Shown: one piece after another, positions 4,690 to 7,824 of the stretch
Numbering within the stretch: position 1 is the stretch's first letter
How the letters are laid out: each line of letters begins with the position of its first letter
Assembly (NCBI GenBank): GCA_003144275.1
Contig: NJBF01000052.1
Location: 1 to 18,667, forward strand
From: Candidatus Heimdallarchaeota archaeon B3_Heim
Lineage (GTDB): Archaea > Asgardarchaeota > Heimdallarchaeia > Hodarchaeales > Hodarchaeaceae
Length of the DNA: 18,667 nucleotides
Direction: 5' to 3'
Position numbers and translations under genes: made by a program
Notes under the pieces: generated by a model
The model's database searches: none
Seen by the model: the letters and a program-made list of their open reading frames with translations, nothing else
Told to the model about the DNA's origin: nothing

Positions 4690-7600
4690 ATGGAACGGTT
4701 CGAGGTGAAACGTAAAATCGCGAGGAATGGCTTATCTCTTATAGCTATTCTGCCAATTCTAATTTTGAGTACTTTAATTAGCACACAGTCCTCCATACCC
4801 GAAATTCAAGCGACTAAGGCAAATGGGGAAATGAAAAATCCCGATAAATTCATTTGGGAAACATTAGGAATTCCAAACGGCATTGATTCCTTAGATCCAG
4901 GCATCAACTATGAAACCACTGGGAGTACAGTTATTGAGTTGATATATGAAACCTTAGTCGGATATAAGGGGAATTCAGTTGAAGAGCTTGAAGGCAGACT
5001 AGCCACGGGATGGACAGTCTCCCCAAATGGACGAGTTTATACCTTTAACCTTCGTAAGAATGTTTTATTCCACGATGGTGTTGTTTTTAACGCGTATGTG
5101 ATGAAATATTCTATTGATCGAGCCATTCTTATGAACGATCCATGGGGACCCTCTTGGATGATAGCTCAAGTCATCAAAGGAGGATCGACTTATATGCAAT
5201 ATTTCAACCCTAATTATACTGAAGCGCAAGCTTATCTTGATGCTGGCGGAGTTGTTGTGGTAGATGATTATATCTTAGAAATCAACCTTGATTCTGCATA
5301 TTCACCGTTTATTAATTCCCTAGCATTCGATGTAGGAAGCGCTGTTTCCCCAAAAGCTGTCATAGAGAATAAACCAAACGAATATACTTTGTTTTATGCG
5401 GATAAAGTCTTTGGTATGTTTCCTCTTGATAGTTGGTTTCCAACCCTATCGGATTATACCAAATTGGGACTGAATACTGATCATAATCCAAAAGATTCTG
5501 GTGTAGTCCCTGGATCACATCGCTTGAGCGATTCCTATCATTTATGGATGAAAGAACACGCGATTGGATCTGGAGCATATAAATTGAAGTCAATAACTAA
5601 GGATTCTATCCTCCTCCAGAAAAATGAAAATTGGTGGGGATCATTTAGTTTGCACTCAGTCGAGGAGATTGAAATTAGATCTGAATTAGACGATGAAACC
5701 CGTTATCAAAATCTAATCAATGGAGATTCTGATATGGTATGTGTAGAAAAACCTGATGTTTTTAAAGTCATGACTCCGGCAGGTGAGCCACTTTATGAAG
5801 GAATAACTACATTTACCGCTCCAACATCAACCACTTTCTTCCTAGGTATGAATATGAAGGAATCTTTACCTTCACTATTTCTGAATGAATCAGAAAATTC
5901 TTTGTACGATGCTAGTCGCCTGTCACGATTCTACAAAGGTGAAGAAAAGGCGAGTCAAGAAAATCCTTTTACTTCGGTTATCTTCCGTAAAGCCATGGCT
6001 AGTGCATTTGATTACTCGTTTTATATCGATAATGTTCTAAACGGAATTGGCAAACAGATGGAAGGGATGATCCCCGAGGGAATTCTTGGTCATAATGATA
6101 ACCTGAAAGAAAATGATCTTCTTCCCTCTTACGATTTAGAAACAGCCAGAACACTATTTGAGCAGGTTGGATGGCAAGGAACTATCAAATTAGTGTATCC
6201 TGTTACGGACGAAGTACTTTCCTATTTATACTTATCCTTAGCTAATTCCTTAGTGATGTGCGATGTTGGAATAAAGGCAATTCTCCAACCCATGGACCAG
6301 GACCAGTATGATGAAGTCACTTGGAGTCAGAAAATTCCTCTCTATTATTGTGGATGGGCTGCAGATTATGCAGATCCAGACAATTTTGTAGCTCCATTTC
6401 TGCATGGACAATATGGTGTTTTTGCATCTTTACTTTCATATGAAAATCCATCTTTGAACACTCTGATAGAAACTGCAGCAATTGAACAAGATATTGATGT
6501 TCGTCGAGAAATGTACCATAATATTGAGGAAGTAGCCGCAAATGATTCCCTGTATATATATCTCAATCAAAATTTGAGATTATTTGTATTCCGTGATTGG
6601 ATACAGAACTATAATGAGAGTGGTTCCTTAAATCCGATGAGCTTTGCTCCAAACTTTCAACATATTGATAAAATGTACGCTTTTTATGATCGAGACATCG
6701 ATGGTATGCCTGATATTTGGGAATTTGAAATGGGGCTCAATGTGCATGATCCAAGTGACGCAAAAATCGACTTAGATGGTGATTGGGTTCTCAATGTAGA
6801 CGAATACAGAGGTGGGTCAAATCCTCGTAATTTTTGGAGTTTTCCAATAATCAGTTTTAGTATTTTTCATGTAGGATTGACTTTTATTATTGCGAGTATA
6901 GCCCTTGCAGCATTTATAGTTAAACTAAGGAACGAAACTGAAAAAAGAAATTTTATCACGAGATTGAAAGCACCAGATTATCCTACAGCAGTAAAAATTC
7001 AAAAATTAGGTTTTACTGATTACATTGCATTAGTACAAACCGAAACAGATGCAAAGTCGTTAATAGAAAAGGCTAATGCACTTTATCTTCAATGTGAATT
7101 CTTGAAATCCATCCAGCAGTATGAAGCCGCTCTGGATGTATTTGAGCTTTCAGAGAACGATAGAATGGTTGCAGAAACATCGTTTAGAATGGTTCTTCTC
7201 CAAAAAGAAACACAAATTCTATCCCCAGAAAGTCACATTCTTCAGCGCTTTCCAGAACCCCCATATAAAAATCCAGCCATTTTTGCTTTTCATCACATGA
7301 TTCAAGCCCTTCTTGCTGAAACAGAGAAAAATTGGGGATCAGCAGAAAAAGAATGGGAAGCAGCGTTAAATAGTAAGGATTTAGAAGTAGAATTTCATGT
7401 AATCTGTCAGGGGGCTCTTGTTGCATCTGAATTTAAAACCTGGTTGAGCAATCCTTCGCCCATAACTAAGAAGAAATTGCTTACAATGCTGAATAATTGG
7501 CAAGATGATTGTGAAAACAACCAATATTTCGCTCAACTGTGTCAAGTATATCTGTTGAGAGCAAGAATTGACCTTGCATCCTTCCAGTTTGATCAAGTGG

Positions 7601-7824
7601 AGCATTGGATAAATAAGTGCTTAAGAATTGCACAACAAGAAGATATGAAGCTTTTCTATGATATAGCGATGAAAGAGTCAGTTAAATTCGAAAGACTTAG
7701 AAAAAACATCAAATCGATCCTGAAACTGGATACTCAACTTTCATCTGAAGAACAGCATAAAAGAGTAGAGGAATATGTACGAGAAGCACTTGGTATCAAA
7801 AAGGGTCAGAAAGATAATCAATGA
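4690..7824 (+). CDS. Family-5 (OppA/DppA-like) solute-binding protein fused to TSP3-like Ca-binding motif, single TM helix and ~300-aa cytoplasmic alpha-helical (TPR-like) domain
   Basis: N-terminal signal-like segment (RK..R..LSLIAILPILILSTLI). Family-5 signatures: SLDP, IYETLV, LATGWTVSPNGRVYTFNLRKNVLFHDG, IGSGAY, FRKAMASAFD, GWAADYADPDNF. DRDIDGMPDIWE...DLDGDWVLNVDEYRGGSNP at 6688-6825. Hydrophobic IISFSIFHVGLTFIIASIALAAFIV at 6847-6921, then KLRN and a helical tail with TPR-like segments (LIEKANALYLQCEFLKSIQQYEAAL; VYLLRARIDLASFQFDQVEHWINKCLRIA). Confidence 0.88.
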   Translation: MERFEVKRKIARNGLSLIAILPILILSTLISTQSSIPEIQATKANGEMKNPDKFIWETLGIPNGIDSLDPGINYETTGSTVIELIYETLVGYKGNSVEELEGRLATGWTVSPNGRVYTFNLRKNVLFHDGVVFNAYVMKYSIDRAILMNDPWGPSWMIAQVIKGGSTYMQYFNPNYTEAQAYLDAGGVVVVDDYILEINLDSAYSPFINSLAFDVGSAVSPKAVIENKPNEYTLFYADKVFGMFPLDSWFPTLSDYTKLGLNTDHNPKDSGVVPGSHRLSDSYHLWMKEHAIGSGAYKLKSITKDSILLQKNENWWGSFSLHSVEEIEIRSELDDETRYQNLINGDSDMVCVEKPDVFKVMTPAGEPLYEGITTFTAPTSTTFFLGMNMKESLPSLFLNESENSLYDASRLSRFYKGEEKASQENPFTSVIFRKAMASAFDYSFYIDNVLNGIGKQMEGMIPEGILGHNDNLKENDLLPSYDLETARTLFEQVGWQGTIKLVYPVTDEVLSYLYLSLANSLVMCDVGIKAILQPMDQDQYDEVTWSQKIPLYYCGWAADYADPDNFVAPFLHGQYGVFASLLSYENPSLNTLIETAAIEQDIDVRREMYHNIEEVAANDSLYIYLNQNLRLFVFRDWIQNYNESGSLNPMSFAPNFQHIDKMYAFYDRDIDGMPDIWEFEMGLNVHDPSDAKIDLDGDWVLNVDEYRGGSNPRNFWSFPIISFSIFHVGLTFIIASIALAAFIVKLRNETEKRNFITRLKAPDYPTAVKIQKLGFTDYIALVQTETDAKSLIEKANALYLQCEFLKSIQQYEAALDVFELSENDRMVAETSFRMVLLQKETQILSPESHILQRFPEPPYKNPAIFAFHHMIQALLAETEKNWGSAEKEWEAALNSKDLEVEFHVICQGALVASEFKTWLSNPSPITKKKLLTMLNNWQDDCENNQYFAQLCQVYLLRARIDLASFQFDQVEHWINKCLRIAQQEDMKLFYDIAMKESVKFERLRKNIKSILKLDTQLSSEEQHKRVEEYVREALGIKKGQKDNQ

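Follow-up and report, generated by a model that had tools for sequence, protein, structure and literature searches.

What might a cell do with a membrane protein that exposes a peptide-type solute-binding protein (SBP) outside and only a helical-repeat domain inside? This question is raised by P0001, a protein of 1044 aa encoded at positions 4690..7824 (+ strand) of an 18,667-nucleotide stretch of DNA from Candidatus Heimdallarchaeota archaeon B3_Heim (assembly GCA_003144275.1, contig NJBF01000052.1). This stretch, hereafter the window, is a metagenome-assembled contig with a low GC content of about 36%. A preliminary description, made from the nucleotide sequence alone, had proposed a transmembrane receptor that recruits scaffold proteins. 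On present evidence, we give a probability of roughly one half to the reading that P0001 is a dimeric ligand sensor whose tetratricopeptide repeat (TPR) tails bind or release cytoplasmic partners. Sensing by SBPs is in itself an already known kind of system. What is new is a family-5 SBP fused through one transmembrane (TM) helix to a TPR domain lacking an output domain, in a family with swapped ectodomains; our literature searches found no description of this family.

The gene is a single uninterrupted open reading frame (ORF) with full-length orthologs, and it is monocistronic by arrangement, as the upstream acyltransferase gene is divergent and the downstream ABC exporter gene convergent. 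The N-terminal signal segment (aa 1-41; 4690..4812, +), recognized by hydropathy and found in orthologs with the same layout, consists of a basic n-region (KRK..R) and a hydrophobic core at aa ~13-32, and cleavage may follow a conserved ..IQA. A Kyte-Doolittle scan showed just two hydrophobic segments in P0001, aa ~10-36 and aa ~715-748, and the second is followed by KLRNETEKRNFITRLK. Hydropathy, alignment, structural model and charge bias together place a single TM helix at aa ~715-745 (6832..6924, +), the corresponding helix of the model spanning aa 720-758. Among 24 family members, the 15 residues on either side of this helix contain on average 1.7 Lys and Arg residues outside and 4.9 inside; therefore, the SBP is placed outside and the tail inside. 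On the basis of hydropathy, charge bias and domain logic, P0001 is thus a real membrane protein of type I, with aa ~42-714 outside, in an Asgard archaeon of the order Hodarchaeales. Pfam and NCBIfam searches found no kinase, cyclase or DNA-binding family on P0001. The anatomy can be regarded as settled, and it agrees with the preliminary description, which had listed a signal segment, a complete family-5 SBP, a calcium-binding motif, a TM helix with basic residues and about 300 helical residues, arranged with the tail in the cytoplasm and without kinase, cyclase or DNA-binding output.

One explanation would make the architecture meaningless, namely an artefact of assembly or gene calling that fused the genes of an SBP and of an unrelated TPR protein, and the window is indeed a short (18.7 kb) metagenome-assembled contig. 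However, unbroken SBP-type frames of 1039-1074 aa are present in eight species-level genomes, including one assembled as a single contig of 3.2 Mb, as well as in independent metagenome collections, which refutes this explanation; judged from these sequences, a chimera or a read-through error is excluded. The fusion is thus not confined to one assembly, a doubt that the preliminary description had itself raised. Ortholog identity diverges in step along the protein, at 52%-78% in the ectodomain, 52%-82% in the stalk and TM helix, and 54%-84% in the tail, and the NCBI names of the close relatives are Hodarchaeales or Heimdallarchaeota. A word-indexed search with the tail returned 13 proteins that combine SBP, TM helix and tail, most of them of ~1040 aa and two incomplete, and an exhaustive search found 154 clusters that carry the tail. 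When 400 genomes of the phylum were scanned, the complete module of stalk, TM helix and tail was found only in the window's own GTDB genus, where 15 of 21 species carry one to five copies each. A search of sequencing runs listed no RNA run, and the DNA runs listed had word shares of 0.26 or less.

The ectodomain matches SBP_bac_5 (Pfam PF00496) at aa 99-574 (4984..6411, +) with an E-value of 1.5e-59 and 202.4 bits against a cut-off of 32.4, covering profile positions 1-364 of 368 and hence nearly the whole profile. This is the sole Pfam family found on P0001, and the full clamshell spans aa ~42-660. A phmmer search against the PDB gave matches to DppA, HbpA, OppA and NikA-type proteins that cover both lobes (chain residues ~20-190 and ~270-500), with E-values from 3e-24 to 1e-14 for DppA, HbpA and OppA. 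AlphaFold2 modelling of aa 37-720 from 12 sequences reached a predicted local distance difference test score (pLDDT) of only 42 and was unusable; the assignment of two lobes is therefore sequence-based. On these matches, the ectodomain is a complete family-5 SBP with both lobes. The NCBIfam matches of the ectodomain, to NikA, Opp4A, DppA and GsiB, were all sub-threshold, and no ligand class follows from them.

Family-5 SBPs normally hand their cargo to Opp/Dpp permeases, and the source genome offers a direct comparison. It has four SBP_bac_5 genes, and the other three each lie within a few kb of a BPD_transp_1 permease pair. One of these, at the C47 locus, belongs to a textbook oppB-oppC-oppD-oppF cluster. 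The P0001 ectodomain shares 42% identity with the C47 SBP across 650 aa, and its C-terminus is different; therefore, P0001 is a paralog of a transporter SBP in which the short anchor has been replaced. Two of the three transporter SBPs (the C47 and C43 paralogs) end with a Thr-rich linker, PGF, a TM helix and RKRRR, an ending that matches Heimdall-CTERM below threshold. P0001 is without such a CTERM-type ending and continues for ~300 residues after its TM helix. Anchored Opp SBPs thus share the fold family of P0001, as do the solved DppA, HbpA and OppA structures, but combine an S/T-rich linker, PGF, TM helix and few basic residues with an oppBCDF cluster, whereas P0001 has a module of 330 aa and no permease neighbour. 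No BPD_transp_1 gene is present on the window contig, and none adjoins any of the eight SBP-type loci; the sole nearby permease lies 6 kb away in one genome, in a phosphate-type cluster with PhoU. Homologs accompanied by oppBCDF, which the preliminary description had named among the signs that would count against its receptor, were seen at none of the eight orthologous loci.

These comparisons bear on the main rival, in which P0001 is a tethered transport SBP that feeds the C47 oppBCDF permease, while the module only holds, clusters or positions it, or touches the transporter ATPases. Its ectodomain is a full-length paralog of the C47 SBP, and P0001 has no output domain. ABC importers often take several SBP paralogs encoded elsewhere. 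Archaeal SBPs are, moreover, normally membrane-tethered (PMC8050422). Nevertheless, the same genome anchors its transporter SBPs by a CTERM signal of ~25 residues, next to which a conserved module of 330 aa seems costly, and this tail is as well conserved as the ectodomain. The lack of a nearby Opp permease at all eight orthologous loci points in the same direction, as does the occurrence of the identical module behind WD40 propellers, which have nothing to hand over to an ABC permease. We judge this transport role unlikely.

The stalk (aa 664-713; 6679..6828, +) contains two DxDxDG-type calcium loops at aa 668-703, between SBP and TM helix, and is thrombospondin-type-3-like by NCBIfam, homologs and an alignment of 24 sequences. 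These loops gave a weak match to NCBIfam throspo3_MtsD (E 5.5e-4) in P0001; Pfam TSP3_bac matches the position in homologs and not in P0001, where a Pfam search of aa 650-720 found no match even at an E-value of 10. The calcium-loop assignment is thus a matter of motif, weak NCBIfam match and homologs. The C-terminal end of the stalk is a juxtamembrane motif common to the whole family, DEYRGGSNPRNFWSFP, and the alignment shows a conserved DEYRGGSDPRNFWSFP before the TM helix. The Pro just before the helix and a Ser within it are invariant, and a His in the helix is nearly so. The membrane-proximal cytoplasmic 'APDY' unit (aa ~759-797; 6964..7080, +), delimited by alignment and homolog searches, has an invariant A761-P762-D763-Y764 just inside the membrane. 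Conservation of the Pro, of the Ser and His within the membrane, and of the adjacent APDY on the inner side appears to exceed what a passive anchor needs. The APDY stretch is one copy of a unit of ~42 aa that forms tandem repeats in a few other proteins and matches no Pfam family.

The same conservation could also be read as a cleavage signal, whereby ligand binding triggers release of the tail by a cut in or near the TM helix, as in regulated intramembrane proteolysis. The helix-perturbing residues (the invariant Pro and Ser and the nearly invariant His) stand in or next to the TM helix whatever the type of ectodomain, and soluble tail-like TPR proteins exist. However, motif conservation is the whole basis of this idea, no protease gene is linked to the family, and the tail dimer predicted below does not require cleavage. 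We consider tail release very improbable.

Beyond the APDY unit, the tail is a TPR-like alpha-solenoid (aa ~798-1034; 7081..7791, +) according to model, Foldseek, atlas and phmmer searches. AlphaFold2, run on aa 700-1044 with the 24-sequence alignment, gave a pLDDT of 89.8, a predicted template modelling score (pTM) of 0.80 and 14 helices, with aa 746-1044 all-helical. The top 50 Foldseek matches in the PDB were nearly all TPR or TPR-like helical repeats (LGN/Pins, designed consensus TPRs, BtubC, SNAPs and Rap), with probabilities mostly near 1, yet E-values of only ~1e-2 and TM-scores of 0.3-0.44. A shape search of the ESM-Atlas with the tail retrieved TPR_12 and TPR_MalT clusters at TM-scores of 0.5-0.59, and language-model look-alikes were generic TPR clusters only. 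The alpha-solenoid expected by the preliminary description is thus what the model predicts. No Pfam or NCBIfam model covers the tail, and Pfam TPR models on it were all sub-threshold (best TPR_2, 17 bits against 27; TPR_MalT, 12.8 against 45). The tail can therefore be called TPR-like by predicted fold and distant homology, and not by Pfam membership. A likeness at the level of fold extends to MalT-type TPR regions, RNPP regulators (Rap, Rgg) and LGN/Pins, but these are soluble, and the tail has invariant APDY and E..NWG motifs of its own and scores below threshold on Pfam TPR models.

Soluble relatives of the tail were found by phmmer (450-850 aa; E 1e-10 to 1e-30), and these score on TPR_12 and TPR_MalT. 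In most of those scanned, the tail-homologous region lies toward the C-terminal side of canonical TPRs, and some carry a MarR-type winged helix, HisKA+HATPase, or an N-terminal ArsR helix-turn-helix. The source genome has five soluble tail-like TPR ORFs, at C88:15607-17217, C59:10897-12660, C11:79428-81245, C7:23564-25261 and C32:31637-33160.

The tail is also predicted to pair with itself. For two copies of aa 700-1044, the interface score ipSAE was 0.49 (runs 0.51, 0.45 and 0.49), above the tool's mark, and the best control scored 0.00; the runs had at least 66% of contacts in common and a partner pLDDT of at least 81. When the tool was calibrated, 20 of 30 proteins with structures solved as pairs of one chain attained the mark, as did 1 of 23 with single-chain structures; these counts apply here only roughly because a self-built alignment was used. 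The predicted symmetric interface centres on W882:W882 with the invariant neighbours N881 and G883, within the motif E877..N881-W882-G883..W889 (7318..7356, +), whose invariant columns form the core of the predicted two-fold contact between tails. The model thus predicts that the tail homodimerizes via the invariant N-W-G motif.

The module also occurs with other ectodomains. In about 50 strong clusters, the same TM helix and tail occupy the C-terminus of proteins of ~800-1400 aa, the complete ones of which begin with a signal segment, and the ectodomains are WD40 propellers or unassigned. Databases name the WD40-type proteins 'WD40 repeat protein', 'TPR repeat protein', 'eIF2A-related protein' or 'hypothetical'. 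The source genome itself has one WD40-type module gene (C19). From juxtamembrane motif through TM helix and APDY unit to tail, WD40-type proteins and P0001 are 34%-47% identical over 345 aa; they share the type-I layout and the genus, and differ in that a WD40 propeller and an unknown region replace the SBP. A maximum-likelihood tree of the tails united the 11 SBP-type sequences in one split with 100/100 support, and midpoint rooting put them among the WD40-type sequences, the root itself not being established. This topology fits a single ectodomain replacement.

Gene neighbourhoods were compared at 20 loci (19 further loci and the window), with ORFs clustered jointly. A family-5 SBP gene directly adjoins the module gene in 6 of 12 WD40-type loci; in five of the six it precedes that gene in the same orientation, the gap being 8-47 bp. 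Half of the WD40-type loci thus keep as a separate neighbour what P0001 has fused. The L017/L018 and L021/L022 loci are near-syntenic pairs, and the six cases thus amount to about four independent ones. The adjacent SBPs have signal peptides where N-termini are present, and all end in short CTERM-type anchors. No permease was found near these SBPs at the five loci whose genomes were searched. The SBP is of normal form in L021 and L022, 43% identical to the source genome's C38 transporter SBP, and circularly permuted in L015, L017, L018 and L023, where it is 25% identical to the C43 SBP. Orphan family-5 SBPs are therefore linked to the stalk-TM-TPR module in two ways, by fusion in one case and by gene adjacency in several. 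In our view this recurrence is the strongest argument that the SBP may work with the module rather than with a transporter.

In L022:5219-13782 (+), a run of genes on one strand encodes a secreted SBP_bac_5 protein of 708 aa, then, after an 8-bp gap, a WD40-type stalk-TM-TPR protein of 1168 aa, and finally a soluble TPR_MalT+CN_hydrolase protein of 836 aa with the CN_hydrolase domain at its C-terminus. In 3 of the 20 loci, L022 among them, a soluble TPR gene with weak likeness to the tail is found no more than 5 kb from a module gene; with ~5 such genes per 4-Mb genome, the neighbourhood looks enriched, the count being small and the genomes kin.

An exchange of ectodomains on a constant tail would also suit a surface-organizing or adhesive anchor, which ties varied ectodomains to a cytoskeletal or positioning scaffold in the manner of integrins or cadherins, without any ligand-dependent signal. 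Besides the many ectodomains on one tail, this accords with stalk calcium loops that resemble those of cell-cohesion proteins, with a tail of protein-docking fold, and with the ParA/MinD-like ATPase genes near four WD40-type loci. The clamshell SBP, on the other hand, binds small ligands and is no adhesin, the SBP-type loci are without ParA-like neighbours, and sensing accounts better for the repeated occurrence of orphan SBP genes beside WD40-type genes. We regard such an anchor as rather improbable.

We hypothesize the following course of events for the receptor reading. A duplicate of the cell's Opp-type family-5 SBP would have lost its short CTERM-type anchor and been grafted onto a lineage-specific module (calcium-loop stalk, conserved TM helix, APDY unit and TPR-like tail) that otherwise carries WD40 propellers. 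P0001 would be held in the membrane as a dimer via the N-W-G interface of its tails. A peptide-type ligand would close the clamshell outside, closure would alter the packing of the two chains across the conserved juxtamembrane and TM segment, and the TPR tails would in turn take up or let go of a partner in the cytoplasm. This partner might be found among the soluble tail-like TPR proteins, several of them equipped with winged-helix, histidine-kinase or hydrolase domains. Anatomy, conservation, paralogy, module shuffling and the missing adjacent permeases are observed in the sequences, and the dimer is a prediction; signalling, ligand sensing, coupling across the membrane and partner recruitment are what we infer. 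The scaffold-recruiting receptor of the preliminary description thereby gains circumstantial backing from ectodomain swapping, the orphan SBP genes beside WD40-type sisters, the predicted dimer and the signalling-type soluble relatives, while a tethered transport SBP remains its rival.

Several observations weigh against the receptor reading. Taken as a set, the residues of the predicted interface show no significant excess of conservation over the remainder of the tail (0.65 versus 0.60), for 1127 out of 10000 subsets drawn at random did as well; the dimer itself represents model confidence obtained from a self-built alignment of 24 rows. Among the 20 loci, no neighbour of the SBP-type gene is retained outside the close relatives, where the surrounding genes differ. 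P0001 carries no output domain, and an Opp SBP of 42% identity is encoded in the same genome, so the P0001 copy could still dock to the C47 permease. Finally, the module is confined to one GTDB genus, and it is thus possibly a lineage-specific structural protein.

To our knowledge, prokaryotic transmembrane sensing relies almost entirely on receptors with a kinase, methyl-accepting, cyclase or DNA-binding output of their own. Receptors stimulated by SBPs include CBP-ChiS, DppA-Tap, LuxP-LuxQ and GlnH-GlnX-PknG; family-5 SBPs are among the SBP families that act as sensors (ChiS, Tap, TlpB), and in GlnH-GlnX-PknG an enzyme-less membrane component relays to a cytoplasmic kinase (PMC8050422). These systems resemble P0001 in using an SBP as the extracytoplasmic sensor, but a separate SBP docks to a 4-helix-bundle or Cache domain and a kinase, chemoreceptor or cyclase provides the output, whereas in P0001 the SBP is covalently fused via the TM helix to a TPR domain. 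By analogy, GlnH-GlnX-PknG would be the nearest mechanistic precedent; PknG carries a TPR domain. In the Venus-flytrap kinases BvgS and EvgS and in eukaryotic glutamate and natriuretic-peptide receptors, a clamshell outside is covalently joined to the inside and the receptor is dimeric. These proteins use family 3 or LIVBP-like SBP classes, and their insides are kinases, channels, cyclases or 7-TM bundles; P0001 differs by its bare TPR solenoid and its other SBP class. The likeness to eukaryotic receptors with SBP-fold ectodomains drawn in the preliminary description thus holds as an analogy only.

A broader proposal, which we put forward tentatively and which may well go too far, is that the family represents an unrecognized kind of archaeal signalling. 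Enzyme-less single-pass receptors with swappable ectodomains (SBP, WD40) would recruit or release soluble adaptors or effectors as their TPR-tail dimers rearrange under the control of a ligand. As part of the same proposal, this logic would be that of eukaryotic adaptor-recruiting receptors, occurring in Hodarchaeales, the Asgard order reported closest to eukaryotes. If the P0001 family does signal, a receptor whose sole cytoplasmic part is a docking domain, reused behind swappable ectodomains, would be a different design. If the module is only an anchor, these archaea would possess a second and much larger anchoring system beside CTERM-type signals. In either case the family is a tractable test set, as it offers a soluble ectodomain whose transporter paralog can serve as control, a dimer hypothesis that turns on a single residue (W882), and few candidate partners within one genome.

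Several further features of these loci were recorded. The permuted SBPs are encoded at L017:1757-3694(+) (P0171), L015:9910-11838(-), L018:13424-15361(-) and 15629-17569(-), and L023:14132-16042(+); in them, aa 46-295 correspond to positions 143-365 of the Pfam profile, and positions 2-141 follow at aa 425-580. The C43 transporter SBP, in which the domain starts at aa ~220 of 628, may share this permutation. A gene for a TPR protein of 804 aa, related to the one in L022, follows the module gene in L019. The ParA/MinD-like P-loop ATPase genes lie ~4 kb or less from four WD40-type genes, including the source genome's C19 copy, at L016:14170-15021, L017:7245-8018, L018:9123-9872 and L024:14151-14993. 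A secreted neighbour of 621 aa (cluster c20) at two WD40-type loci had no Pfam or PDB match. The unit L.APDY.TA.KI.KG.FPDY..Y..A is present in three to four or more tandem copies in P0168 (aa 541-710), P0169 (aa 571-740) and P0170 (aa 12-270); the carriers are multi-TM proteins with a terminal zinc ribbon and one soluble protein, and searches with P0168-P0170 gave no informative family besides zinc ribbons.

Within the window, the acyltransferase gene at 3493-4392 (-) is of PlsC type (Pfam Acyltransferase, E 2.7e-12). Such a gene adjoins the SBP-type gene in five close relatives, upstream and divergent in two and downstream and convergent in three, and is absent at the distant ortholog loci. 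On the other side, 8073-9878 (-) and 9891-11672 (-) encode a half-transporter ABC exporter pair (ABC_membrane + ABC_tran), convergent with P0001 and not conserved beside its orthologs. P0002, encoded at 147-3416 (+), is an acidic protein of 1089 aa with Trp-rich repeats and a signal segment, for which no Pfam or NCBIfam family was found. Its C-terminus consists of a Thr-rich linker, PGW, a TM helix and RRLKRR, and resembles a CTERM anchor; a P0002 homolog lies near the ortholog in L006. In the Opp cluster of the source genome, the OppC-type permease (L025:10813-12756, -; equivalent to G000:C47) has 647 aa; an FG-GAP-like repeat inserted at aa 150-217 separates its OppC_N helix from the permease core and points to a large insert outside the cell.

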